Source of the DNA: an uncultured Candidatus Saccharibacteria bacterium
GTDB taxonomy: Bacteria; Patescibacteriota; Minisyncoccia; Phycocordibacterales; UBA12079
Assembly: GCA_964459145.1 (NCBI GenBank)
Contig: CAYWKC010000001.1
Location: 40,200 to 104,199, forward strand
DNA length: 64,000 nt
Direction: 5' to 3'
The notes below the pieces were generated by a model. The model was not told where the DNA came from, did not search any database, and was given only the letters and a program-made list of their open reading frames with translations. Shown in pieces: positions 4,949 through 59,316 of this stretch. Numbering within the stretch: position 1 is the stretch's first letter; every line of letters begins with the position of its first letter. The translations under genes and the position numbers were made by a program.

Positions 4949-4956
4949 AATGTGTT

Positions 4957-5470
4957 CTTTTATATCTATAAGCCGGATTCTGTTTACCCGACCATCGTAA
5001 AATGGTTTAGGGTTTGATAGCCATTTATCTAGGAAGATTGTTACCAATCTTCTCAAGCGGTACTTCCGGCACCACTTTTTTGAGAAGTTAAACTTCTCAA
5101 AAAAGTGGTGCCGGACACGACCTTGCACTTAGGTAAGGATTTAGCCGTTTCACCCCCTCACCCAGAACAGTGCCAACAAATTAAAATTTGTCAAAAATTA
5201 ACTAAATTTTAATTTACCATTAGGGACTGTTTTTGTGCTATTTTATGTTTGCAAAGCAAACAGCACTGTTCTGGGTGAGGGACTACACCCCCGAAAGGAT
5301 GCCTAAAATTCTTTCGAATTTTAGCGTCTCTGCTCGCACCTCTACAACCACAAAGTTGACGACGGGCGTTACCCGCTACCTTGCTCCGAGCACCAAAATA
5401 GTGCTGGAAGTGTCCGGACTTTCCTCCAAGCCTTATAAAAATAAGGCCCAGTAACTATCCGATATAAAAG
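4957..5470 (-). ncRNA. rnpB: RNase P RNA (bacterial type A) with large insertions
   Basis: Minus strand shows GGAGGAAAGTCCGGAC (P4 5' strand), GGTAACGCCCG (P10/11), ACAGAATCCGGCTTAT (P4 3' strand) and a P1 pairing CTTTTATATC/GATATAAAAG. A TAGTATAAT -10 box lies just upstream on the minus strand. Confidence 0.8.
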
Positions 5471-21274: not shown

Positions 21275-22972
21275 TTATTTTGTATAAGATAGACAAAAAC
21301 TGTCTTTGGAATTTGTTCCAATTCCTCGACACCACCATTGATAATGGTCTCCTCCTAGATTGCTAAAAGTTACAGCACTTGGCGTTCCAGAGTTACAAAG
21401 ATTGGTTGTGGGAGCAAAATCAACAGAAATCAAATTGGAAGAACCACAGGCCCCATCAGTTATACTTCCTAAAATATAAAAGAAATCATCGCTCAAATCT
21501 TGAATGGGCGAACCCTTGGTACTTAAGCCAATTTCTATTTTGAAAGTTCCTACTGTCGATAGAAAAACAAGACTATCTGGAATAGTCCATTGATAACTAC
21601 CATTGTTAGGAATTGAGCCAAAATCATAAACAGAATTGCCTTCTTCATCCAAAAGATTTATGAAAACATTTTTGCCTGAGAAATTAGTAGACTCCCATTT
21701 AATTTCGTAAGCGAAGCCTGCTTTCCAAGTTTCTCCTCCATTGGGTGATAAAATACTATGAGAAAATATTTCTGTTGAAAGACAAGCTCCCCCACGGCAA
21801 CCATTGGCACAAGAATAATTACTAACTCCAACCGCTAAGATATCTGTGTTGGAAGATTGACAAAAATATTCTTTAACAATAGCTTCTGTTGAACAATAAT
21901 CTTCCCAAATTTTTGTAGTAGGACCTTGAGCCAAAATTGTTCCGAAAGTTAAACCCTTAGTGAAAAAATCTTTTCCACCATCAGAATCAGAACAAGCGGT
22001 GGTTGTCTCTGACAAAATATCAAACAATTCACTTTTATCTTCAGAGGTTTTTAAATTAGTGGCGCTAAGTTGAAGCTGATAATTTGAAGCAACCATAACA
22101 TCAAATGGAATTGTCCATTCAAATTTGTTTTCGAAGCCATCCACTGTTCCAATATATCTAACGGTTGTTGGATCTAAATTACCTCCTATCAAATAAATTG
22201 AATAACTTTCCGCCTGGGGGTCATTATTTATCCAAGTAATATTGTAGGTCTGTCCTCGAATGAGTTGTTCATTGGCTTGAGGTGAAGTAACGGTGAAAGT
22301 GTTTGTTAAATTATTGTCATAAGCATAACAACTAACATTTTTCCCCCAGTTTAATCCTGTACAAATCCAAGTATAACGAATAATTCCTCCTGTTTGTTCT
22401 TCTGTGCTAACTGTGGAGGCCGTTCCTGTTGCGCAAAGATTTACTACTGGTTTGTAAGCAAAAGATTGCCCATGAGCAGAACCGCAAGAAGCATTAATTG
22501 TGGCTGATGATTGTGTTAAAGAATTTGTTTTTTCACAACCAGATAATTGGTTTAATTTTTTTCTTGTAGTAGCTCCTACATAACCAGAACCATAAGTAAG
22601 ACCCCAAGGAGCTAAAATTTCACTTTTGTATTTTTGTTGAAAACTAATTACTGCTGAAGAAGTATTTTCTCCAAAATAACCATCTTTGTCTTTTGAAATG
22701 CCAAAACCCTCTTTTTTTAAAACTTGTTGGAGAGCTTCTACTTCTTCCCCGCTATTTCCGTATTTTAAATTGGTATCAAAATCGTGGCACCATTCTTCTG
22801 AAGGAGTTTCTCCTGTTTGTTGAGCTATTTGTTGCTGTAGACTAGTAATTTGTGCCAACAGAGAATTTAACATCGCGGTTAACTCAGCAATGGTTGAGGC
22901 TGAAGATATATTAGGAAAAACCAATATTCCTAAAAATAGAATTGATAAGATAACTTCTTTTATTTTACTCAT
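21275..22972 (-). CDS. secreted protein with peptidoglycan-binding domain and Cys-rich repeats
   Basis: Signal peptide; PG_binding_1-like segment (YGNSGEEVEALQQVLKKEGF...FGENTSSAVISFQQKY); repeated C..C..C modules. Confidence 0.55.
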   Translation of the reverse strand: MSKIKEVILSILFLGILVFPNISSASTIAELTAMLNSLLAQITSLQQQIAQQTGETPSEEWCHDFDTNLKYGNSGEEVEALQQVLKKEGFGISKDKDGYFGENTSSAVISFQQKYKSEILAPWGLTYGSGYVGATTRKKLNQLSGCEKTNSLTQSSATINASCGSAHGQSFAYKPVVNLCATGTASTVSTEEQTGGIIRYTWICTGLNWGKNVSCYAYDNNLTNTFTVTSPQANEQLIRGQTYNITWINNDPQAESYSIYLIGGNLDPTTVRYIGTVDGFENKFEWTIPFDVMVASNYQLQLSATNLKTSEDKSELFDILSETTTACSDSDGGKDFFTKGLTFGTILAQGPTTKIWEDYCSTEAIVKEYFCQSSNTDILAVGVSNYSCANGCRGGACLSTEIFSHSILSPNGGETWKAGFAYEIKWESTNFSGKNVFINLLDEEGNSVYDFGSIPNNGSYQWTIPDSLVFLSTVGTFKIEIGLSTKGSPIQDLSDDFFYILGSITDGACGSSNLISVDFAPTTNLCNSGTPSAVTFSNLGGDHYQWWCRGIGTNSKDSFCLSYTK

Positions 22973-23077: not shown

Positions 23078-23441
23078 ACCGATACCCGCTTATGCGTTGG
23101 AGTATCGGTGATTACTTAAAGCGGCCATGGCTTAGGTTGATCCGGCGAGGGATATTGATACCCCAGAGGATTCGTCCGTAAACCAAACCTGACCGAGGGA
23201 CAAAAGTAGGTTGAGAGAATCTTCCTCTCTCTGGCTTATCCGATGTTCGCAATCGCGTTGCGAAGGATAGGAGGCGCTCTGAATTTGAGAGCCCATCCAT
23301 GCGCCTGAGCCGTCTTTATCTTGGACAGGCGTCGGTGGGGATTATTTCTCCCCAGAATAATGGGCTGCACCGTTGTAGTTACGGCGGAAGGCGGCCTTAT
23401 CGCCAGCCATAAGCCCGTGTCCTCAAAACATTCTCTCAACC
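23078..23441 (-). ncRNA. unclassified GC-rich structured RNA with own promoter and terminator
   Basis: Minus strand has TTGACA-17-TATCAT (plus 23449-23477) and a terminator hairpin at 23086-23111 plus T-run. 13-bp long-range pairing GGGTTGAGAGAAT/ATTCTCTCAACC; G+C far above flanks; no coherent ORF. Confidence 0.4.
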
Positions 23442-23533
23442 CACCTGTATGATAAGACACAGTTTAATTATTGTCAAGCATTTTTATTTTCTTCCACACA
23501 GAAATAAGGGGGAAAAGCCAATTTTGAGGATTA

Positions 23534-27210: not shown

Positions 27211-28245
27211 TTATTTTTTGTTTAGAAGTAAAAGAGTTAACCCGATTATTTTATCTTTGTCTTGTGATTTACTTTCCGCTACTAATAAAGTTAATGCTGT
27301 TAAAGCTTCAGGAGTTAAACTAATTCTAAGAAGACCTGTCTTTCTAAGAAACCACACAAAAGAAAAAGCTCCGCTTCTTTTGTTGCCGTCAGTAAATGGA
27401 TGATTTTTAACAATAAAATACAGAAGATGGGCAGCTTTTTCTTCGGTAGTCGGGTAAACATCTTTTTTACCAAAGGTCTGAAAAACATTACCAACAATTC
27501 CTCCAATCGCATCTTTATTTCTCTCTTGTCCAAATAATTCAGTGGTTTGTTTTTTAGTAAGCAAAGTTTTCTTTAGATCATGAAGAGCTTGATTTAATTC
27601 TTCTGCGGTAAAAATTATTTGTTTTTTAGTGATGCCTTTTTTGGGGAAACTTTCTTTATCATAAGCATCCAGAGAAAACCATGTGCTAGCAAACACGTTA
27701 ATCAACTCTAAGATGTTCTTGGTATCAACAATATTTCCAGCCGGTAATAAAGCTTTGATTTCTGAAACAGCTTGCAAGAATTTTTGATAATTAGCCCCGA
27801 CTCGCTGTTTATTAATGGTATAGCCATCAACTAAATGCTGTTTTAAAGTCTTGGTCGCCCAGATGCGGAAAGCGATTGCTTTTGAAGAATTCGTCCTATA
27901 ACCCACCGCTAAAATGATATCTAAAGAGTAAAATGTGACAGGCTTGTCTGAATTTGCAATATGCATTTTTTGCATATTGCTTTTTTCATCAATTTCGCCA
28001 TCTTTGAAAATGTTAGTAATATGACGAGAGACAACTGATTGGTCAATGCCAAAAATATTTATTATTTGTGCTTGTGTTGCCCAAATTGTTTCATTATCAA
28101 AATCACCACGCAGTTCAATGGCCCCGTTTTTGGCTTGGTAAATCATTAATTGTTTTTTTAATTCGGTCTTGGTCATCTTGGTGTTTGTATTATAACAGGT
28201 TTTTGGGGAAAAGTGTTCCAAGGTGATGTAATCAAGCACGGTCAC
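27211..28245 (-). CDS. RhuM-like N-terminal domain fused to Fic/DOC domain protein
   Basis: C-terminal Fic motif HPFTDGNKRSGA; N-terminal region resembles RhuM-family proteins. The N-terminal extent is uncertain. Confidence 0.65.
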   Translation of the reverse strand: MTVLDYITLEHFSPKTCYNTNTKMTKTELKKQLMIYQAKNGAIELRGDFDNETIWATQAQIINIFGIDQSVVSRHITNIFKDGEIDEKSNMQKMHIANSDKPVTFYSLDIILAVGYRTNSSKAIAFRIWATKTLKQHLVDGYTINKQRVGANYQKFLQAVSEIKALLPAGNIVDTKNILELINVFASTWFSLDAYDKESFPKKGITKKQIIFTAEELNQALHDLKKTLLTKKQTTELFGQERNKDAIGGIVGNVFQTFGKKDVYPTTEEKAAHLLYFIVKNHPFTDGNKRSGAFSFVWFLRKTGLLRISLTPEALTALTLLVAESKSQDKDKIIGLTLLLLNKK

Positions 28246-29578: not shown

Positions 29579-29784
29579 GGTGCGCCGGGCAGGATTCGGT
29601 CACTCTCGTGGATATTTTTGTTCGCTTCGCTCCAAAAATATCTCACTTCATTGACCTCCACTCACTCGTATTTTTTCTTCACTGCGTTACGAAAAAATAT
29701 ACTCGTTCGGTTCGAATCCTGACTGTACGAAGTACAGTAAGAAAAAAAGCCTATCCAAACTGGATAGACCTTTTTCTCTTAGGG
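29579..29784 (-). repeat. tRNA-linked element downstream of tRNA-Tyr, ending in a tRNA 3'-end copy
   Basis: Exact 20-nt copy of the tRNA-Tyr 3' end (29580-29599 matches 29783-29802). Contains a terminator hairpin (29742-29776), an inverted T-arm copy CAGGATTCGAACC, and a GAGCGAAGCGAA box. Confidence 0.6.
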
Positions 29785-29867
29785 TGCGCCGGGCAGGATT
29801 CGAACCTGCGTAGCCGTAAGGCGCGAGTTTTACAGACTCGTGTAATTGACCGCTCTACCACCGACGC
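29785..29867 (-). tRNA. tRNA-Tyr (GUA), long variable arm
   Basis: Cloverleaf: acceptor GCGTCGG/CCGGCGC, anticodon loop CTGTAAA, T-arm GCAGGTTCGAATCCTGC. Confidence 0.85.
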
Positions 29868-29876
29868 ATATTTTAT

Positions 29877-37244: not shown

Positions 37245-37316
37245 GGCCTGGTGGCGAAGTAGAAACGCTTCGGTCTGCAAAACCGACATGCGCGGGTGCG
37301 ATTCCCGCCCAGGCCT
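37245..37316 (+). tRNA. tRNA-Cys (GCA)
   Basis: Acceptor GGCCTGG/CCAGGCC, anticodon loop CTGCAAA, T-arm GCGGGTGCGATTCCCGC. Confidence 0.85.
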
Positions 37317-37511
37317 CAAGTAAAATAATTAGGAAATTCTTTTCTTCATTATTTTACTTTGGAGGTTCTGGTAGGAATCGCACGGTGGTAGGAAAAAGTC
37401 CCGTGGACTTTTTCCGAGTCGCGACCAGCAGTACTTTAGTTTTTCAAGTTTGAGTTTACGAAAACTAAGAAAAACTTTAGTAACTGTGGATCGATTCCCG
37501 CCCAGGCCTCA
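37317..37511 (+). repeat. tRNA-linked element after tRNA-Cys, ending in a 20-nt copy of the tRNA-Cys 3' end
   Basis: 37492-37511 (CGATTCCCGCCCAGGCCTCA) matches the tRNA 3' end. Hairpin GGAAAAAGTCC-cgt-GGACTTTTTCC at 37391-37415. Inverted T-arm copy GGAATCGCAC at 37374-37383. Confidence 0.6.
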
Positions 37512-37524
37512 GGAAAAATAAAAT

Positions 37525-37606
37525 GCCTGGGTGGCGGAATTGGTATACGCGCACGACTTAAAATCGTGTCTTTCACGAGATGCGGGTTCGACTCCCGCCC
37601 CAGGCA
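37525..37606 (+). tRNA. tRNA-Leu (UAA), long variable arm
   Basis: Acceptor GCCTGGG/CCCAGGC, anticodon loop CTTAAAA, T-arm GCGGGTTCGACTCCCGC. Confidence 0.85.
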
Positions 37607-37627
37607 CAAAAAAGAAATAAACGATAT

Positions 37628-37700
37628 CCGCCCATAGCTTAGCTGGTAAAGCAGTCGGCTCTTAACCGAAAGACCGTAGGTTCGAATCCTACTGGGCGGA
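37628..37700 (+). tRNA. tRNA-Lys (CUU)
   Basis: Acceptor CCGCCCA/TGGGCGG (C1-G72), anticodon loop CTCTTAA, T-arm GTAGGTTCGAATCCTAC, A73. Confidence 0.7.
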
Positions 37701-37704
37701 CAAA

Positions 37705-37764
37705 TGTAGCGAAGCGGAATTTGTTAACCTAAGGCAAAAAAGATATTTAGTATTTAGTAATAGC
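37705..37764 (+). repeat. partial tRNA-linked element after tRNA-Lys (GCGAAG box only)
   Basis: TAGCGAAGCGGAA...AAAAAAGATATTTAGTA resembles the 3' half of the Trp element but has no hairpin and no tRNA-end copy. Confidence 0.35.
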
Positions 37765-37871
37765 AAAACAAACCTAACAGATAGGACCATTTGTTGATAA
37801 TATTTTACCATTGTTATATACTTTTAGTAGTTTGTAAATATTGAAAACCTAAAAAACAAAAGGAGGTTGTT

Positions 37872-38342
37872 ATGGAAATACCCACTAATATTAAAAAGGA
37901 AATTTCCTTAATTGAAAAGGGTAAGAGGCTGAAAAAGAGAAGGGTTGAACAGAAAATCCCCTATTCTCAATTGCTTTCCCTCGCGAAAAATAATTTAACA
38001 TTTCTTGATAGAATTGCTAATGCCGAGCCCATCCTCTCTTTTCTTCGCAAAAATTCAAGACGAATATTAATTGTTAACTGGTTTAACTCTACTTACCCAC
38101 AGCATAATTCACGAGATAACTTAGGGCGGCTGATTCTAACAGTTATAAACGAAAAGGCATCCCTCTATGATTGGATTGACGCTGACTACCCTGCGAATAG
38201 AAGTAATCGAGACTATACATTGGTTACCGAGAAGGAATTAGAAAAATGGCACCCCAAGAGTCTTGAACGATTTGCTCTTCTTACAGAAAAAGCCGTCTGG
38301 AAAAATATTTTTCAAAAGCTAAGGATTATGAGAAGTTATTAA
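37872..38342 (+). CDS. hypothetical protein
   Basis: 156-aa ORF with AAAAGGAGG RBS and a downstream terminator (AAATCCCCTGTT...AACAGGGGATTT). Confidence 0.4.
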   Translation: MEIPTNIKKEISLIEKGKRLKKRRVEQKIPYSQLLSLAKNNLTFLDRIANAEPILSFLRKNSRRILIVNWFNSTYPQHNSRDNLGRLILTVINEKASLYDWIDADYPANRSNRDYTLVTEKELEKWHPKSLERFALLTEKAVWKNIFQKLRIMRSY

Positions 38343-38500
38343 ATTTTAGTTTTCAAAAATCCCCTGTTTTGCCCCTTTGGGGCTTAACAGGGGATTTTCA
38401 TTAAAAACCTCTTGATTATAATCAGAATATTCTATATAATACTCACATGTCACCACAGCCCTATTTTTTTGTCAGATAATTTAATTAGGGTTTCAAAAAT

Positions 38501-38659
38501 ATGTCACAAGATAATTTAATTAAAATGACTTGCCAAGATTGTAAAAGAAACAATTACTGGACAAGAAAAAACAAAAAAGGAGTAGAACGAAAATTGGAAT
38601 TCAAGAAATTTTGTAAGTGGTGCAGAAAGCACGTTATGCATAAAGAAACCAAGAAATAA
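38501..38659 (+). CDS. rpmG: 50S ribosomal protein L33 (below the ORF-track size cutoff)
   Basis: MSQDNLIKMTCQDCKRNNYWTRKNKKGVERKLEFKKFCKWCRKHVMHKETKK. C..C/C..C zinc-ribbon and KNK...LE.KK.C..C..H pattern of L33. Terminator at 38665-38690. Confidence 0.75.
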   Translation: MSQDNLIKMTCQDCKRNNYWTRKNKKGVERKLEFKKFCKWCRKHVMHKETKK

Positions 38660-38739
38660 AAGTTAAAAAAGTCGCCATGCGACTTTTTTTAGTGCTTTTA
38701 GCTTTTAATTTGGATATAATTAACTTATACTATTTTTAT

Positions 38740-38811
38740 GGGTCTATAGTTTAGTTGGTAAAACAGCGGTCTCCAAAACCGCCATCCGAGGTTCGAGTCC
38801 TCGTGGACCCG
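38740..38811 (+). tRNA. tRNA-Trp (CCA)
   Basis: Acceptor GGGTCTA/TGGACCC, anticodon loop CTCCAAA, T-arm CGAGGTTCGAGTCCTCG. Confidence 0.85.
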
Positions 38812-38999
38812 CAATAATAAAAATCATTAAATTTTATATTGGGTGATTTTTGTTATTTATGATTTTGACAGGGCTCGAACGGTAATAGGAAAAGTGCTAA
38901 ACGCACTTTTCCGAGCCACGGCCAGCAGTACTTAGCAGATTTTGAGCGAAGCGAAAAAAGATGTTTAGTAATTGTGGGTCGAATTCTCGTGGACCCGCA
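38812..38999 (+). repeat. tRNA-linked element after tRNA-Trp, ending in a 14-nt copy of the tRNA-Trp 3' end
   Basis: 38986-38999 CTCGTGGACCCGCA matches the tRNA 3' end. Hairpin GGAAAAGTGC-taaac-GCACTTTTCC at 38888-38912. GAGCGAAGCGAA box. Terminal GTGGGTCGAATTC T-arm-like segment. Confidence 0.6.
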
Positions 39000-46163: not shown

Positions 46164-46364
46164 CAATTTTGTTGCCAGACTAGGATTCGTCCTGACGGTC
46201 TCTAAATAAAATTCTTCGCTAACCACTTGAATTTTATTAAGAGCCACGGGACACGGCTCGTTGTTGCTCCCCACGGTCGCAACATACTCCGTTGTTCGAA
46301 TCCTATCCAAAATGTGCGTAGGCACATTTCTTCTGGCAATAAAATTTCGTCGCTCTCAATTTTG
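46164..46364 (-). repeat. tRNA-linked element downstream of tRNA-Gln, ending in a 26-nt copy of the tRNA-Gln 3' end plus flank
   Basis: 46164-46189 matches 46357-46382. Hairpin AAAATGTGC-gtag-GCACATTT at 46309-46329. Inverted T-arm copy TAGGATTCGAAC. GAGAGCGACGAA and TAGCGAAGAA boxes. Confidence 0.6.
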
Positions 46365-46436
46365 TTGCCAGACTAGGATTCGAACCTAGATAACCAGCTC
46401 CAAAAGCTGATGTCCTACCATTAGACGATCTGGCAA
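46365..46436 (-). tRNA. tRNA-Gln (UUG)
   Basis: Acceptor TGCCAGA/TCTGGCA, anticodon loop TTTTGGA, T-arm CTAGGTTCGAATCCTAG. Confidence 0.8.
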
Positions 46437-54491: not shown

Positions 54492-55151
54492 TTAATTTCT
54501 CCAATCATCCCCCCCCACCCAACTGTCATCCCCTTCATAGGCAATCAGCTTGACATCAAAATCAATCTTCCCATCAAACGCTTCCCGATCTAACTTCCCC
54601 GTGCAATAAACAAAGTAGCCCGTCTTAGAAACTTTCAACCCAGTCTTTCTCAATAACCACTGATAAACTTCCATTTGTCTTTTATAGCCGTCTTGCCATT
54701 CTTTATCTAATTCTACCACTGGTTCATCTTTCGCGGTCGCTTTATAATCAACGACAATATATTCCCCCTGACTATTTATCCAAAGATCATCAATCGCCCC
54801 GGTGATGACCAAACCAGTTTTTTTGTCCTCGTAACGAACACCTTTAAAATTCTCCCTCCAAATATCCAACTCCTCATGAGCGACCGGCCGAGCATCTACC
54901 CCATATTGCTCCTGTAAAGGATGTTGTTCCCCTTTCGCCCGATGAATATCAAATTCTTTTTTAAGTAGAGTATCAACCGCACTGTTGATAGCAAAAGGAA
55001 ACCCCGGCGGTCTCTTCGTTCCCAATTTATTATCAATATAAAAACAACGAGGACATTGCCGAAACAAATCTATCTTAGACCGACTCAGTTTCCATTGCTT
55101 TCCTCCGTAATTCCACGAAGCTTTTCTGTTGGAGTTATAATAATCTGACAT
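54492..55151 (-). CDS. PD-(D/E)xK nuclease, Cas4/RecB-like
   Basis: N-terminal LSRSKIDLFRQCPRCFY motif, GAIDDL and IVVDYKAT nuclease motifs. Confidence 0.6.
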   Translation of the reverse strand: MSDYYNSNRKASWNYGGKQWKLSRSKIDLFRQCPRCFYIDNKLGTKRPPGFPFAINSAVDTLLKKEFDIHRAKGEQHPLQEQYGVDARPVAHEELDIWRENFKGVRYEDKKTGLVITGAIDDLWINSQGEYIVVDYKATAKDEPVVELDKEWQDGYKRQMEVYQWLLRKTGLKVSKTGYFVYCTGKLDREAFDGKIDFDVKLIAYEGDDSWVGGDDWRN

Positions 55152-55181
55152 GGTTTTAATTTAAAATTTATAATTTTTAAT

Positions 55182-57419
55182 CTACAAGTTTAAATTTTTC
55201 CATTCTTTTAAATCCGAATCTTTTGCAATCTTCCACAAACCAGATACTTCTTTTATCAAACCCCCTTTAAATTTTTTATTTTCTTTTAACCAATTTTCTA
55301 ACGCTCTTGCTCTCATTCTTGCACCTTCTCCCTCCGCAGTAAAGCCACTTTTTGTATCCACAATCCAAATATTATTTTTGGTTTTTATAAACCAATCAGG
55401 AAAAAATAACCTTCCGTCCTCCCTTTTCACAGAAAAATTATCTGACCCATTATCCCCATTCTTATACCACCAAATAACACTTTTATTTTTCTCCAAATAA
55501 TCCACAAAACTTTTTTCATTTTTATTTTCTTTTTCTAAGTAACAAGGCTCTAAAGCACATTTTTTGCTTTCTATTTCTTTATACAAAGAATTATATCTAA
55601 CTTCTGACAAAGGAATTTTTATCGGTTTCGTTTCATCTATCCTTTTTTCTTTTTCATTTTCTTCTATTTTTCGTACCTCTTTATATTTCAAAAGGGCTTC
55701 ATTTATTATAGGAACCAGAGTACTATTTGATCCTTTCATTAAATCATTAACAATATAATGATAATATTCTTTCTTCTCCCCTATTTTTAAAATATCTTCA
55801 AAAAATACATTCAAAGCTGATTTTAATACTCCATAGGAACGAATTATTCCACCATATTTTGATTCTTCTTCCTGTTTAGACAATACTTCAATACAAAGTT
55901 TCTTATATAGTTTTTCTACATCTGGATAAGACATTTCTTGTCCAAAATCTTTTGCTTCTTTTAATCGTTTTATAAACTTATCATAATCAGTAATTTTTTG
56001 GTCAACTATTAAATTCAAATCTAAATGATTATTAAAATAAAAACCAGCTTTTTTTAAGGCTTCTTTGTTTTTAAAATATTTTTTTGCAACCTCAATAAAA
56101 GTGAATTGAAAAGTTTTTCCTAAATCATTATAACTAGTTCTTTGAGAGACAAAAGTTTTTAAATCAATTTGTTCTACATCTTTTTTTATTTTTGCTACAA
56201 GAAGTTTTGTTTCATTTGGTCCTATTCCTTGAAAATTTTTATAACTGTCTATAATTTCATTTTTTGTGTAAGTCGTATATAAATAAGAATGATTAAGGAT
56301 AGACTCTAAATATTTTTTTGCTTCTGGCATTCTCAAAACTCTTCCTAAAAGCTGAATTTGAAAGACTGGGCTCTTGGTTTCCCTATACATCAACATCACT
56401 TGGGCTCTAGGGCAATCCCATCCAGTCGCTGGGGCTTGTTTAAAAAGTAAAACATCAACTTTATTATTATGTTTTGTTATATTTTCTAAGTTTTCTTTAT
56501 CAGAACCAGTCAACCACACTGCTATTTTATTTTTTTCAACACCTTTTTCTTCTAAATACCCCAAAACAATATCTTTTTGTTTTCTCTCTTCTTGATCTTT
56601 CTTTTCATCATTAGGAAGTTGAATCATCAAAAGAGGATTAACATCAATATTATTTTTTTCATAAACTTTTTTTAATTCTTCTCTTTTTTTAAGAGCCAGA
56701 TCTAAAACATACCTATCTAAATCTTCTTCTTTTTTATCTTTAAAATCTTCTTTTGTTTGTGATAAAATACCCTCTTTAATAAGTCCTGCATTAACAACAT
56801 CTTCATAAGGTATATCTACATCAACATTCTCACTATCATGAGTAGCCGTTATTTTTAAAATGATTCTAGGGTTTATTTCTTTTATAACTTCATCAGCTAA
56901 TTGAGTTCTCACTTCCCTATGGGCTTCATCAATTATTAAAATAATATTTCTATCTTCTAATTTGGTTCTTTCTATCATTCCATCCCAAGTAATCTCTGTT
57001 TCTCCCTCTCTTCTTAATTTTCTTCCCTCTTTGTTCGCAGTTTTTATCTTAGACCAATTAAAAAACAAAATTTCATTTTGTTCTAAAATTTTACCTCTAC
57101 TTAAATCATTCAAATCAGTAATATCTATGGCAACATTTCCATCATAGTATTGCATAAATTTATTTTTACTTTGGGAAGCAAGATCTCCGTCTTTTGACCC
57201 TCCAATACTAACCCACAAAAAAGTTAAATCAGCCTCAACAAGTCTTGGGTCATTTGTAAGGTCTTTTATAAATTGAGCCATCATCACAGTTTTCCCCGAT
57301 CCTGTTGGAGCTTGAAATCTTATAGATTGCATTGATTCTTTTTTCCACTTATGAAGAAACTCGTCCATCAACTTTTCTGTAGCTTCTATTTGAAATGGTT
57401 TCAATATTATTTGTTTCAT
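55182..57419 (-). CDS. res: Type III restriction enzyme Res subunit (SF2 helicase plus PD-(D/E)xK)
   Basis: Motif I FQAPTGSGKT, DEAH box IIDEAHR, C-terminal FPD...IVDTK endonuclease motif. Confidence 0.8.
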   Translation of the reverse strand: MKQIILKPFQIEATEKLMDEFLHKWKKESMQSIRFQAPTGSGKTVMMAQFIKDLTNDPRLVEADLTFLWVSIGGSKDGDLASQSKNKFMQYYDGNVAIDITDLNDLSRGKILEQNEILFFNWSKIKTANKEGRKLRREGETEITWDGMIERTKLEDRNIILIIDEAHREVRTQLADEVIKEINPRIILKITATHDSENVDVDIPYEDVVNAGLIKEGILSQTKEDFKDKKEEDLDRYVLDLALKKREELKKVYEKNNIDVNPLLMIQLPNDEKKDQEERKQKDIVLGYLEEKGVEKNKIAVWLTGSDKENLENITKHNNKVDVLLFKQAPATGWDCPRAQVMLMYRETKSPVFQIQLLGRVLRMPEAKKYLESILNHSYLYTTYTKNEIIDSYKNFQGIGPNETKLLVAKIKKDVEQIDLKTFVSQRTSYNDLGKTFQFTFIEVAKKYFKNKEALKKAGFYFNNHLDLNLIVDQKITDYDKFIKRLKEAKDFGQEMSYPDVEKLYKKLCIEVLSKQEEESKYGGIIRSYGVLKSALNVFFEDILKIGEKKEYYHYIVNDLMKGSNSTLVPIINEALLKYKEVRKIEENEKEKRIDETKPIKIPLSEVRYNSLYKEIESKKCALEPCYLEKENKNEKSFVDYLEKNKSVIWWYKNGDNGSDNFSVKREDGRLFFPDWFIKTKNNIWIVDTKSGFTAEGEGARMRARALENWLKENKKFKGGLIKEVSGLWKIAKDSDLKEWKNLNL

Positions 57420-57420
57420 A

Positions 57421-59316
57421 TTAGTTGTTCAAACTCTTATATATTTTTAATATCGGTTCCGGAATATGTTCTACTTTAACATTTTTATATTCTGCATAAT
57501 CATTTTTAAAATCATTCCCCCCATAAGAAAAAATATAAATTTTCACTTCTTTCTTATCTAATATTTTTTTCTCCATTTCTGGTAAATTATCCAAATTCTC
57601 TCTAAAATAGATTCCCACAAATTTATCTTTTTCGTCAGTAAAAATTTGATAATACTTATTTTTAACGATTTCCTTAAATGTATCTTCCTTTAAAGCTATC
57701 ATTTGCCCAGCTTCGTGAGTAAACTCTAATTTCTTTTTATCAGAAACATTTTTAATATTTTCTACATCTACAAATTCAGTTTTAAAATATTCTAAAGCTC
57801 CTCCCAATCCCCCCACTTTTTCCCCATTGGGTTTTGTATACCCTTTTATAACTTTTTTAATTCTTGGTTGAGTTATCCTCCTACAAATTCCATACTCTTG
57901 AATTTCTTTTGCACTCATACCTTTTTCTTGCAATTCTTTTTCAAACCCATTCAATTCATTGTTGGTACACAAAATAAATCTCCTATTTCCTCCGTCTTCT
58001 TTGTTTAAATCTAAAACCGCATGTCCTGTTGTTCCAGAACCAGCCATAAAATCAAGAATTACTGAATTTTTCTTCTCAGAGATTTTTATTAACAATTTTA
58101 TTAAACCAATTGGTTTTGGTGATGTAAAATATGAATTTGAACCAAAAAGTTCCTCTATTTCTTTTGAAGCATTTTCATTTGTTGCCACATTATCAAACCA
58201 AGTATCTACTATCTGACCTTGAATCTCTGATAAAAATAATTTTCTATTAGGAACACCATTTTTTGAAACAACAAGTCTCCCGTCTTTTATATATTTATCA
58301 AATGTACTTTTTGAACATCTCCATTTTCCTTTTATAATCCTACCATCTGGCATCTTTATAGAAAATTCTTTGTTTTTAGAACTATCAGGTTGCAATAATG
58401 GAACCAAACGCCAATCACCCCGAGGATCATTATCAGGGTTTTTATATGTTTTTTTAACGTAATCTTCGTTTAAAGGAATATTATTTAGTTGACTCAAATC
58501 AATATTTTTTGTGTAGCAAAATATGTAATCATGAACACGAGCAACATTTTTAGATAATCTTGGTGGAGTTTTTGTTCTACGCCATAAAAAATTAGCTATA
58601 AAATTTTCTCCCCCAAAAATTCCATCGCAAAGAATTTTTAATTGGGCCATCTCATTATCATCAATAGATATAAAAATAACCCCATCATTTTTTAATATTT
58701 TTTTTGCCAACACTAACCTTTTTTCCATAAAAGAAAGCCACTTTGAATGTCTAAAAGTATCTTCTCTATCTACGAAAGAATCATTATAAATAAAATCTTT
58801 ATTGCCTGTATTATATGGGGGATCAATATAAATAACATCAATTTTATTTTTATGAGTATAATTTAAAACTTGCAAAGCATGATAATTATCTCCCTCAATT
58901 AAAATATTTTTAGGTTTATTTAAGTCTTTATCTTTAATTCGTTTATCTTCTTTAGAAACTAAAATTGGGGCTTCTGTTTTACATCTTTCAACGACTTCTT
59001 CCTTGTGGTCTTCCCAAACAAGTCCGTACTTTTTCTGCTTTTTTAAAAGTTGCAATTCTTTGATAAGTTCGTCTTTTGTATATTCTTCAAAATCTTTTTT
59101 ACTTACAGGACTTTTTTTGGCTAAATCAGAAACTAAACCCTTTTCTTTAATCTCTCTAATATGAGCCACTGTATATCTTCTGTCTTTTCTCTTCCCAATT
59201 CTATCAGGCACAATAAAACCCTCCTTTTCCCAATTCCGCAAAGTGTCCTCATGCACACCCAAAAGCTCCGCCACCTCCCCAATCTTATATAATTTTTCCC
59301 TATTTTCTTTTTTCAT
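57421..59316 (-). CDS. mod: Type III Mod-like DNA methyltransferase with N-terminal MerR-type HTH
   Basis: Beta-class order: motif IV IYIDPPYNTGN precedes motif I FMAGSGTTGHA. N-terminal LYKIGEVAELLGVHEDTLRNWEKEGF HTH. Stop and start overlap with res. Confidence 0.8.
   Translation of the reverse strand: MKKENREKLYKIGEVAELLGVHEDTLRNWEKEGFIVPDRIGKRKDRRYTVAHIREIKEKGLVSDLAKKSPVSKKDFEEYTKDELIKELQLLKKQKKYGLVWEDHKEEVVERCKTEAPILVSKEDKRIKDKDLNKPKNILIEGDNYHALQVLNYTHKNKIDVIYIDPPYNTGNKDFIYNDSFVDREDTFRHSKWLSFMEKRLVLAKKILKNDGVIFISIDDNEMAQLKILCDGIFGGENFIANFLWRRTKTPPRLSKNVARVHDYIFCYTKNIDLSQLNNIPLNEDYVKKTYKNPDNDPRGDWRLVPLLQPDSSKNKEFSIKMPDGRIIKGKWRCSKSTFDKYIKDGRLVVSKNGVPNRKLFLSEIQGQIVDTWFDNVATNENASKEIEELFGSNSYFTSPKPIGLIKLLIKISEKKNSVILDFMAGSGTTGHAVLDLNKEDGGNRRFILCTNNELNGFEKELQEKGMSAKEIQEYGICRRITQPRIKKVIKGYTKPNGEKVGGLGGALEYFKTEFVDVENIKNVSDKKKLEFTHEAGQMIALKEDTFKEIVKNKYYQIFTDEKDKFVGIYFRENLDNLPEMEKKILDKKEVKIYIFSYGGNDFKNDYAEYKNVKVEHIPEPILKIYKSLNN

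Follow-up and report, generated by a model that had tools for sequence, protein, structure and literature searches.

What are the structured inserts of about 190 bp that directly follow four of the seven tRNA genes identified by ARAGORN in the window (the whole 64-kb stretch of DNA analyzed here), and how could they have come to lie there? Each insert, located immediately 3′ of tRNA-Cys, tRNA-Trp, tRNA-Tyr, or tRNA-Gln, contains both an antisense and a direct copy of the 3′ part of its own tRNA, and its 3′ end is an exact 14–26-nt copy of the tRNA from T-loop nucleotide C56 onward. ARAGORN and the direct-repeat search confirm the count of four out of seven given in the first-pass annotation, as well as its exact terminal copies at a regular distance, the copy spacing being 186–204 bp and the C56 register shared. 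By simple reasoning, the chance of a given 14-mer recurring within 300 nt is about 1e-6; here such a recurrence is seen four times, in the same register. The parts of the four elements are listed below.

37299..37318, plus strand: X1 (Cys), T-loop C56 to discriminator +2; functional tRNA-Cys gene at 37245–37317
37318..37359, plus strand: Cys spacer hairpin, AT-rich, directly 3′ of the tRNA, 19-nt arms
37358..37383, plus strand: Cys degenerate A′ TTGGAGGTTCTGG, then T′ GGAATCGCAC (T-arm antisense; inverted copy at 37374–37383)
37370..37501, plus strand: Cys core, covariance model 95.1 bits, E 4.7e-24; P1 5′ strand, PJ, P2 (37391–37415), P3 (37423–37492), P1 3′ strand
37492..37511, plus strand: X2 (Cys), exact 20-nt terminal copy CGATTCCCGCCCAGGCCTCA
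38790..38813, plus strand: X1 (Trp), T-arm to 3′ end; functional tRNA-Trp gene at 38740–38812
38813..38866, plus strand: Trp spacer hairpin AATAATAAAAATCA / TGATTTTTGTTATT
38867..38989, plus strand: Trp T′ AGGGCTCGAAC (38870–38880) and core, covariance model 93.5 bits; P2 38888–38912, P3 38920–38980 with loop GAGCGAAGCGAA
38976..38999, plus strand: X2 (Trp), terminal copy, exact over its last 14 nt, with two transitions further 5′ in the T-loop/T-stem part
29783..29802, minus strand: X1 (Tyr), C56 to discriminator +2; tRNA-Tyr gene at 29782–29868
29723..29782, minus strand: Tyr spacer, with an intrinsic-terminator-like hairpin (~29744–29775) and a small hairpin CTGTACTTCGTACAG (29723–29737)
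29589..29723, minus strand: Tyr T′ CAGGATTCGAACC (29709–29721) and core of a divergent subfamily, 63.6 bits, E 3.7e-15
29579..29598, minus strand: X2 (Tyr), exact 20-nt terminal copy, then native CCA-type end and native terminator
46357..46382, minus strand: X1 (Gln), C56 to 8 nt beyond the discriminator; tRNA-Gln gene at 46364–46435
46306..46356, minus strand: Gln trailer hairpin, A′ TTGCCAGA (antisense of the acceptor 3′ strand), P0 hairpin (~46307–46331)
46180..46307, minus strand: Gln T′ TAGGATTCGAAC (46294–46305) and core, 84.7 bits, E 4e-21
46164..46189, minus strand: X2 (Gln), exact 26-nt terminal copy

X1 and X2 form exact direct repeats of 20, 20, and 26 nt in the Cys, Tyr, and Gln elements, with start-to-start distances of 193, 204, and 193, respectively; in Trp, the exact 14-nt repeat occupies 38800–38813 and 38986–38999 (start-to-start 186; 24 nt at 88%). 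Inverted T-arm copies are also present as initially described, complementary at 13/13 positions in Tyr, 12/12 in Gln, 10/10 in Cys, and, approximately, 10/11 in Trp, where the single mismatch is G·T-compatible. The Cys A′ TTGGAGGTTCTGG pairs with CCAGGCCTCAA via two bulges and G·U pairs. The native terminator after the Tyr X2 is the same one that follows tRNA-Tyr in a relative (locus L010).

The family covariance model recovers exactly these four copies in the window, tRNA-Leu, tRNA-Lys, and tRNA-Glu being element-free by this model, and a scan with it, which the first-pass annotation had proposed, yields 40 copies in 27 loci of Patescibacteria genomes and metagenomes. The hosts are 13 tRNA species (Cys, Trp, Tyr, Gln, Leu, Ser, Thr, Val, Glu, Pro, Lys, Arg, Phe) and one tmRNA. 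Family members were collected with a pattern derived from P3, and hence the sequence conservation of P3 is inflated; eight out of 12 pattern matches in GTDB genomes are true, all eight in Patescibacteria, Paceibacterota or “Saccharibacteria” MAGs, and 18 out of 19 metagenome matches are true.

Read from the 5′ end of the tRNA-sense strand, a family member has four parts. A hairpin spacer of ~55 nt (mostly 50–60 nt), often terminator-shaped, is followed by the antisense T′, preceded in some copies by A′ and the hairpin P0, which lies exactly at the 65/66 boundary; T′/A′ is the Watson–Crick reverse complement of the tRNA T-loop, T-stem 3′ strand, and acceptor 3′ strand. The core (~105–130 nt) is a three-way junction of P1 (T′ paired with the terminal copy), PJ (a short helix bearing a GA-rich internal loop and hairpin P2), and P3, a long hairpin with a conserved G·U pair and a bulged A. 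The 3′ end is the direct tRNA copy X2, which starts at C56 in 28 out of 28 copies with an identified host tRNA; among these 28 copies, tRNA positions 56–64 have one to three mismatches per column. The right end is variable and falls mostly at discriminator +1–3 nt or where the native terminator ends (L044, L023, L010), and the duplication length ranges from 8 to >80 nt.

The structure of the core is under selection, and the folding strand is the tRNA-sense one. The fraction of paired cells in the family alignment is 90.3%, compared to 73.0% in shuffled data and 32–43% with partner columns slid; both sides have changed in 25 out of 28 pairs; and the covariation score is 0.465, compared to 0.173 (shuffled) and at most 0.115 (slid). 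The strand is indicated by the pair counts, 83 G·U/U·G vs. 20 A·C/C·A; folds with DNA parameters do not discriminate between the two strands. The family-wide covariation thus upholds selection on structure, as argued earlier from the window copies.

Some of the homologies initially proposed have to be reassigned. The hairpins with A-run, GC, and T-run arms, taken as homologous in all four elements, are not homologous: they are core P2 in Cys and Trp, P0 in Gln, where it lies before the antisense segment, and a terminator-like spacer hairpin in Tyr. The GAGCGAAGCGAA box, considered a mark of the family, is the apical loop of core P3 and a generic loop motif, and the supposed partial element after tRNA-Lys is the native tRNA-Lys trailer, a hairpin at 37701–37725 also found in L039 and L041. 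The T-arm-like GTGGRTCGAWTYC does enter T-loop positions 56–60, but its upstream part is the P3 3′ strand, and it is not simply a T-arm mimic, since the A/T after GGG covaries with the T/A at the P3 base. Inspection of the flanks of the family alignment yields TTCGAAC and G(T/A)CGAA, which are T-loop-derived; a 4-bp TCGA target duplication around the core was rejected, as hosts with the TTCAAAT loop (L039, L040) have inverted, not direct, flanks. A hammerhead-like reading of the GA-flanked P2 was also rejected, with invariant positions not fitting and no model matching.

Comparison of orthologous loci in relatives, also proposed in the first-pass annotation, reveals precise empty sites at Cys, Trp, and Gln. 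L010/L011, whose neighboring dihydroorotate dehydrogenase (DHODH) is 81% identical, carry an element after Tyr and Gln and none after Cys and Trp; L012, with a DHODH of 76% identity, has none after Cys, Trp, and Gln and, unlike the window, has one after Leu. The precise empty sites, together with the Leu copy in a relative at a site empty in the window, mean that the element moves. Turnover is indicated by the Tyr and Gln copies, whose core subfamilies in the relative differ from those of the window. The element occupies many tRNA species and leaves the tRNA gene intact. Tandem or nested arrays are formed in L017, L027, L034, L039, and L045. L025, having no adjacent tRNA, was set aside as evidence, as its sequence past the end of the tRNA is the same as that of L031 and resembles an assembly join; contig ends of the same organism from other samples, which lie near the elements, revealed no alternative allele.

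The empty sites, the 13 tRNA species with tmRNA, the arrays, and the absence of a recombinase, transposase or reverse transcriptase family among the window genes checked agree with the miniature non-autonomous tRNA-targeting element mentioned among the initial explanations. Our preferred reading, which we put forward tentatively, is therefore a family of small non-autonomous mobile elements inserting at tRNA/tmRNA 3′ ends in Patescibacteria (CPR bacteria). We could not find a description of a mobile element of this kind in the literature searched; the search yielded only the group I introns in anticodon loops of Patescibacteria tRNAs, which are a different thing (PMC13011429).

The inserts might instead be host-useful structured tRNA trailers (processing, termination or decoy signals), spread by local duplication and gene conversion instead of transposition; a tRNA-like minihelix of A′–P0–T′ and the terminal copy, read by RNase P or RNase Z, would be an example. 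The high occupancy in the window and the roughly constant spacer length fit this explanation, as does the imitation of the acceptor and T stems by A′–P0–T′ with X2 in some copies (window Gln, L028, L030, L034). Moreover, in elements with a decayed terminal copy, T′ is still complementary to the functional tRNA, which also speaks for the mobile element, with −17.8 kcal/mol for T′ with the tRNA vs. −10.3 kcal/mol with the terminal copy in the window Trp element, −37.0 vs. −14.8 kcal/mol in L045, and −21.2 vs. −9.5 kcal/mol in L011; the T′–tRNA mismatches are mostly wobble-compatible, which fits RNA and DNA alike. However, close relatives do well with empty sites, occupy different tRNAs, and have different core subfamilies at the same tRNA, many copies are devoid of A′, and tandem arrays with nested decaying copies are typical of selfish DNA. 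The tRNA-trailer RNA family suggested in the first-pass annotation thus leaves the presence/absence pattern unexplained, and we consider a trailer function improbable.

The elements share an intact tRNA, an insert, and a direct repeat starting in the T-loop with integrative elements and genomic islands of tRNA/tmRNA genes (tyrosine integrase, T-loop sublocation), where tmRNA targets and tandem arrays are also known. The likeness to attL/attR noted earlier holds with respect to geometry and fits L043 poorly. There, two tRNA-Pro isoacceptors 400 nt apart carry elements 97.5% identical in the spacer, P0, T′, and core, each with its own tRNA’s acceptor sequence in both copies, which argues that both copies may be target-derived, although gene conversion could mimic this pattern. 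A classical integrase product, either a minimal attP circle or a scar of a larger island, with the element supplying the left copy, would account for the identity block from the T-loop to or beyond the tRNA end, the arrays, the tmRNA target, and the terminator-like hairpin brought right after the restored tRNA end. We deem it very unlikely, given not only L043, but also the at least 14 targets, which would require many integrase specificities, and the constant size and covarying hairpins, which deletion scars would hardly be expected to show. Unlike islands, the elements are ~190 bp long, non-coding, and integrase-free, and hold an internal target antisense and a conserved covarying three-way junction. 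No match was found by blastn of one core against phage (INPHARED) and plasmid (PLSDB) collections, and pattern scans of IMG/VR produced chance matches only, none confirmed by the covariance model; hence, no related autonomous or episomal form is seen in these collections. Given the constant size and architecture, the conserved, covarying cores, and the lack of a larger relative in these phage, plasmid, and viral collections, the earlier suggestion of reduced remnants of larger integrated elements is not supported.

The matching of T′/A′ to each new target poses a difficulty for the mobile-element reading. The cores of L036 (Leu) and L037 (Ser) are 100% identical, and their T′/A′ are entirely different and perfectly matched to the host, a combination requiring that T′/A′ be re-templated upon insertion or that cores undergo gene conversion with each other; conversely, L017 has the same 85-nt X–spacer–T′ with two different cores. 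A pseudo-tRNA reading, with A′/T′ copied from tRNA 5′ strands, was rejected on the basis of Watson–Crick pairs where the tRNA has G·U: in L010, A′ has C opposite G69, whereas the tRNA has U4, and in L030, T′ has A opposite U63, whereas the tRNA has G51. The complement reaches the tRNA 3′ end in some copies only (L010, L030, L028).

According to the mechanism we propose, the element would work as a folded single strand, and T′/A′ would recognize its target, positions 56 to ~73 of a tRNA gene, by base pairing. The breakpoint would be set between T55 and C56, and the insertion would leave a second copy that begins at C56 and has a variable end, mostly at discriminator +1–3 nt, due to which the tRNA gene survives. 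The movement would be catalyzed in trans by a putative enzyme encoded elsewhere in the genome. Our data comprise 64 kb of this genome and isolated loci from other genomes and metagenomes; among the called genes of the window with precomputed Pfam assignments and 20 further ORFs scanned, there is no recombinase, as the first-pass annotation had noted, and also no integrase, transposase or reverse transcriptase.

We lean tentatively toward a DNA-level route, in which a recombinase or an HUH-type transposase would act on a folded single-stranded DNA site. Integron attC, CTX-phage attP(+), IS200/IS605 ends with PATEs, and REPIN/RAYT pairs work via folded single-stranded DNA and, like the elements, are short and non-coding with one active strand, conserve structure above sequence, form imperfect hairpins with G·T pairs and bulged bases, and have an internal site pairing with or mimicking the target; REPINs and cassettes also use an enzyme encoded elsewhere. 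Strand-specific structure with compensatory change, the hallmark of such sites, is observed in this family. Identity with integron attC was rejected, as the R″/R′ consensus (RYYYAAC/GTTRRRY) is absent from the elements, as is IS608 TTAC/TCAA; furthermore, folded sites pair 4 nt with the target, compared to 10–22 nt here, and have neither a long variable target duplication nor strict tRNA 3′-end specificity.

Alternatively, and less probably, mobility might be RNA-mediated: a read-through transcript from the tRNA promoter would be copied to DNA by a reverse transcriptase encoded elsewhere, T′/A′ pairing either with the tRNA itself or, in an R-loop, with the tRNA gene, and synthesis would be target-primed from a T55/C56 nick, or the core RNA, perhaps a small ribozyme, would be ligated to the tRNA 3′ fragment; the duplicated segment from C56 would then be the 3′ part of the tRNA transcript. 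This rather doubtful route is consistent with the tRNA-sense orientation, the enriched G·U pairs, one of them conserved, the GA-rich internal loops, and the right ends at discriminator or terminator ends, resembling RNA 3′ ends. The antisense segment resembles a primer-binding site, and re-templating by tRNA would explain identical cores with different T′/A′. No promoter-like site was detected within the elements by promoter scans, and the window Cys element must be transcribed, since it lies inside the Cys–Leu–Lys cluster with no promoter-like site 3′ of it. Retroelement primer-binding sites, R2-type TPRT elements, and retrozymes likewise feature complements of the tRNA 3′ part, terminal direct repeats, a target-derived 3′ junction, and variable-length duplication; unlike these systems, the element sits at the tRNA gene itself, and its complement is T-arm-centered. 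Against the RNA route, the window genes checked include no reverse transcriptase, group II introns are absent from 95 complete Patescibacteria genomes surveyed (PMC13011429), A′ is interrupted by P0 and does not consistently reach the tRNA 3′ end, and the copies have no non-templated CCA.

The hairpin loops also bear on the choice between the two routes. Triloops, chiefly C(GAA)G, C(TTT)G, and C(TGT)G, account for 49 of the ~85 terminal loops, and GNRA and UNCG loops are absent; the DNA mini-hairpin d(GCGAAGC) is a classic example of very high stability. Most spacers resemble intrinsic terminators that would stop read-through from the tRNA into the core. Rfam 15 yields no element match at the gathering threshold or E ≤ 5, only chance-level overlaps (mir-26, E 0.32), and specifically no group I or II intron or ribozyme family even at E ≤ 5. 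The triloop excess, the absent GNRA/UNCG, and the terminator-like spacers are hints in favor of DNA over RNA.

A more specific and rather unlikely version of the mobile element is a new, nucleic-acid-guided class, with T′/A′ as an internal guide reading the T-loop-to-acceptor part of any tRNA gene by base pairing and rewritten per insertion, and the conserved three-way junction as a catalytic or enzyme-docking module. Rewriting of the guide from the target would explain identical cores with perfectly matched, unrelated guides, and, if true, the element would in effect be a naturally programmable means of insertion by which the targeted gene is always preserved.

Patescibacteria tRNA genes commonly harbor group I introns, which, like the elements, are small structured inserts, most of them without a homing endonuclease (PMC13011429). 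A self- or protein-spliced T-loop intron that has acquired a 3′ exon copy, with maturation by 3′ processing or splicing, could be imagined on this basis, the more so as, in MFE folds of the whole unit, the insert is looped out and the 5′ acceptor strand of the tRNA pairs with the terminal copy. We find it scarcely credible: the elements follow an intact, uninterrupted gene and match no intron model, whereas the described introns lie within the anticodon loop (including position 35/36) and are recognized by group I models (PMC13011429), and splicing to the terminal copy is not required, because this copy decays.

Miniature inverted-repeat elements (MITEs; Correia, RUP, ERIC) are also small, non-autonomous, multi-copy, hairpin-forming, and often co-transcribed. 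Unlike them, our family has no short fixed-length TSD and no family-constant terminal inverted repeats, its arms (T′, X2) following each host tRNA; we know of no IS related to these elements. Strict tRNA/tmRNA 3′-end targeting, an internal antisense, a covarying three-way junction, and the lack of an own gene are not combined in any of the families compared, and the mechanism could show either folded single-stranded DNA sites in a new role or guided insertion of a new kind. Patescibacteria genomes are tiny, and yet an insert follows over half of the tRNA genes in these 64 kb, making it a major unannotated component of these genomes, able to break assemblies and to confuse annotation of tRNAs and att sites. 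The family is also found in MAGs titled Saccharibacteria, and, since Saccharibacteria include cultured strains, the question is experimentally testable.

Seven tRNA genes were identified in the window by ARAGORN, and behind four of them lies an insert whose end is a copy of the 3' part of the tRNA, as the first-pass annotation had claimed; no insert is present behind tRNA-Leu, tRNA-Lys and tRNA-Glu.

Inserts behind tRNA genes of the window (host; exact terminal copy; start-to-start spacing)
tRNA-Cys; 20 nt; 193 bp
tRNA-Trp; 14 nt (24 nt at 88%); 186 bp
tRNA-Tyr; 20 nt; 204 bp
tRNA-Gln; 26 nt; 193 bp

The exact repeats thus span 14–26 nt at spacings of 186–204 bp. The inverted copies of the own T-arm, also described from the sequence, are likewise found inside each insert (Tyr 13/13, Gln 12/12, Cys 10/10, Trp 10/11), the single mismatch in Trp being G.T-compatible. 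The tRNA-tailing inserts are real, and an Rfam search of the window recognised the tRNAs and the RNase P RNA and nothing else.

The element has a constant anatomy. A spacer of 38–77 nt, mostly 50–60 nt, separates the core from the tRNA end; it forms a hairpin, often resembling an intrinsic terminator, with the acceptor 3' strand sometimes within the stem. Many copies then have A', which is antisense to the 3' strand of the acceptor, and a hairpin, P0, located precisely at the boundary 65/66; T', antisense to the T-loop and the 3' strand of the T-stem, is found in all copies. The core comprises PJ (CGGC/GCCG) around a GA-rich internal loop, hairpin P2 and then the long hairpin P3; helix P1 is formed by the terminal copy (X2) paired with T', and the resulting three-way junction was recovered by RNAalifold. 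At the 3' end of P3, the A/T that follows GGG changes in concert with a T/A at the 5' base of the helix (13 U-A, 10 A-U), and hence the GTGGRTC segment, described earlier as T-arm-like, belongs to the core and is more than a mimic of the T-arm. Both A' and T' are genuine reverse complements of the 3' strand of the tRNA: in L010, a syntenic relative of the window, G69 faces C in A' but U4 in the tRNA, and in the related locus L030 U63 faces A in T' but G51 in the tRNA; these two cases rule out copies of the tRNA 5' strands.

X2 begins at C56 in the 28 copies whose host is known, and positions 56–64, which make P1, are nearly always retained. The right end is variable, extending to the discriminator plus 1–3 nt in about half of the copies; the shortest X2 are 8–15 nt (L045, L041, L031b, L011, L010), and others span the whole native terminator (L044, +43 nt; L023, +35 nt; L010). 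Where X2 has decayed, T' is still complementary to the functional tRNA.

Selection on structure, proposed in the first-pass annotation, was assessed on an alignment of 40 copies with 500 shuffles and, as a second control, with the partner columns slid.

Structure statistics (measure; observed; shuffled; partner columns slid)
Cells paired; 90.3%; 73.0%; 32–43%
Covariation score; 0.465; 0.173; at most 0.115

None of the 500 shuffles reached any observed measure, and in 25 out of 28 pairs both partners have changed, in agreement with that proposal. G.U/U.G pairs outnumber A.C/C.A pairs (83 vs. 20, or 53 vs. 19 without conserved G.U). The core structure is under selection, and the folding strand is the tRNA-sense strand. 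Sequence conservation of P3 is inflated, as most copies were collected by a P3 pattern; the compensatory changes are carried by the copies found without it (Tyr and Gln of the window, L010, L011, L017a, L027, L031b, L034b, L042b).

The covariance-model scan suggested earlier was performed with a model built from an alignment of 26 copies; it found the four named copies in the window (63.6–95.1 bits), none beyond Cys, Trp, Tyr and Gln, and 40 copies at E<1e-4 across 227 kb of related loci. The distribution was studied with a pattern derived from helix P3. Eight of its 12 matches in the GTDB one-genome-per-species collection are true copies, all from Patescibacteria, Paceibacterota or 'Saccharibacteria' MAGs, and 18 out of 19 matches in JGI metagenomes are true as well; the one IMG/VR match is by chance, and no relatives of the element were found in phage, plasmid and viral collections. 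The hosts identified to date comprise Cys, Trp, Tyr, Gln, Leu, Ser, Thr, Val, Glu, Pro, Lys, Arg, Phe and a tmRNA gene, and five loci (L017, L027, L034, L039, L045) contain tandem or nested arrays. Metagenome contig L031 and MAG contig L025 share 100% identity starting at the last 4 nt of tRNA-Glu and are unrelated upstream of it, which probably reflects a chimeric join, made during assembly, where tRNA and element meet.

Judged by homologues of the dihydroorotate dehydrogenase (DHODH) encoded nearby, the window belongs to Patescibacteria/Parcubacteria, and orthologous tRNA loci, a comparison proposed earlier, were compared in syntenic relatives.

Occupancy of tRNA loci in relatives (locus; DHODH identity; empty; occupied)
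L010/L011; 81%; Cys, Trp; Tyr, Gln
L012; 76%; Cys, Trp, Gln; tRNA-Leu(taa)

The empty sites are exact: in L010/L011, 26 nt separate Cys from Leu, and the ATG of the gene behind Trp lies 2 nt past the tRNA. The Tyr and Gln copies of this relative belong to core subfamilies other than those of the window, the native tRNA-Tyr terminator of L010 is present on both sides of the insert, and tRNA-Leu(taa), occupied in L012, is empty in the window. Quickly changing occupancy and exact empty sites indicate that the element is mobile.

Other insertions were observed in the window and in related loci:
window 37872–38342, plus strand: 156-aa ORF with a good ribosome-binding site, between tRNA-Lys and rpmG
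L012 2093–2398: small GIY-YIG ORF between tRNA-Cys and tRNA-Leu; a 15-nt copy of the 5' end of tRNA-Leu precedes it
L012 2111–2130 and 2620–2639, also L034 and L037: 20-nt perfect palindrome CCTGCCTGCCGGCAGGCAGG

The 156-aa ORF has no Pfam match and is missing at this position in L010 and L012, hence being a lineage-specific insertion beside the tRNA cluster. The GIY-YIG ORF is a second, different kind of insertion duplicating a tRNA end. The palindrome resembles a very small palindromic insertion element in its behaviour; one of its insertions lies within the loop of P3 in the Leu element.

The likeness to attL/attR noted earlier holds for the geometry, which is the same as in tRNA-integrating islands; however, the islands' defining integrase is absent from the window genes checked, and an element-borne identity block is doubtful. 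A classical attP supplies its own tRNA end. In L043, two tRNA-Pro isoacceptors 400 nt apart carry elements with 97.5% identical spacer, P0, T' and core, and both copies in each have the acceptor sequence of that very tRNA-Pro, a pattern that would fit target duplication, contrary to the element bringing its own tRNA end. The cores of L036 (Leu) and L037 (Ser) are 100% identical and bordered exactly by TCGA...TCGA, whereas the spacers, T'/A' and X2 of the two are unrelated, each perfectly matching the host; conversely, in L017 an identical 85-nt X-spacer-T' segment is joined to two different cores. To judge from these sequences, either the guide (T'/A') may be re-templated at insertion, or cores may be exchanged or converted between copies.

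The statement that the window lacks a recombinase stands for the called genes with Pfam hits and 20 further ORFs scanned, among which no recombinase, transposase or reverse-transcriptase families were found (precomputed Pfam for the called genes). Two other loci were noted:
window 54492–59316, minus strand: cluster of an N6/N4 DNA methyltransferase with a MerR/HTH domain, a ResIII/SWI2-SNF2 helicase and a PD-(D/E)XK nuclease, which looks like a restriction-modification or defence locus
window 27211–28245: Fic/RhuM protein

As to the route of movement, we tentatively lean towards single-stranded DNA, with the element acting as a structured folded-strand site whose stem would imitate the target. 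Such a design is similar to that of attC, CTX attP(+), and IS200/IS605 or REPIN ends, although the consensus boxes of these folded single-strand sites are not shared. The core is separated from the tRNA by terminator-like hairpins, and of about 85 terminal loops 49 are triloops such as C(GAA)G and none are GNRA or UNCG; GCGAAGC is a classic stable DNA mini-hairpin. Movement via RNA seems somewhat less likely; it agrees with the same sense of element and tRNA, with the position of the Cys element within the Cys-Leu-Lys cluster, where a promoter scan found no promoter-like site after it, with the wobble-compatible mismatches, and with the duplication right ends resembling transcript ends.

The element differs from a usual MITE in its target-specific arms and variable duplication length, and is not one of the recently catalogued group I introns of Patescibacteria tRNA genes, which sit in the anticodon loop (PMC13011429). 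Of the readings offered earlier (miniature elements, remnants of integrated elements or a trailer RNA), the best supported is that of a miniature, non-autonomous element that targets tRNA genes and whose structure is selected, given the exact empty sites in relatives and the family-wide covariation. No description of it was found in Rfam 15 or the searchable literature, which is no proof of absence; being widespread in Patescibacteria, unannotated and unusually built, the family is of high interest.

Further structured RNA features of the window are as follows:
4953–5470, minus strand: class A RNase P RNA, 518 nt vs. the 367-position model, with large insertions (105.8 bits, barely over the gathering threshold of 100 bits)
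23100–23470, minus strand: GC-rich, strongly folding region of ~340 nt between ORF 21275–22972 and dnaB
37701–37725, plus strand: hairpin with loop GNNGCGAAGCGNA immediately 3' of tRNA-Lys

The GC-rich region has a sigma-70-like promoter and a hairpin with a T-run as terminator (MFE -136 kcal/mol, z -3.8); Rfam gave nothing for it up to E<=1, and ARAGORN detected no tmRNA anywhere in the window. The region is a candidate unknown structured RNA. The tRNA-Lys hairpin is also kept behind tRNA-Lys in the distant Patescibacteria loci L039 and L041, and the motif of its loop is seen again in the element (P2 and P3) and in other tRNA trailers.
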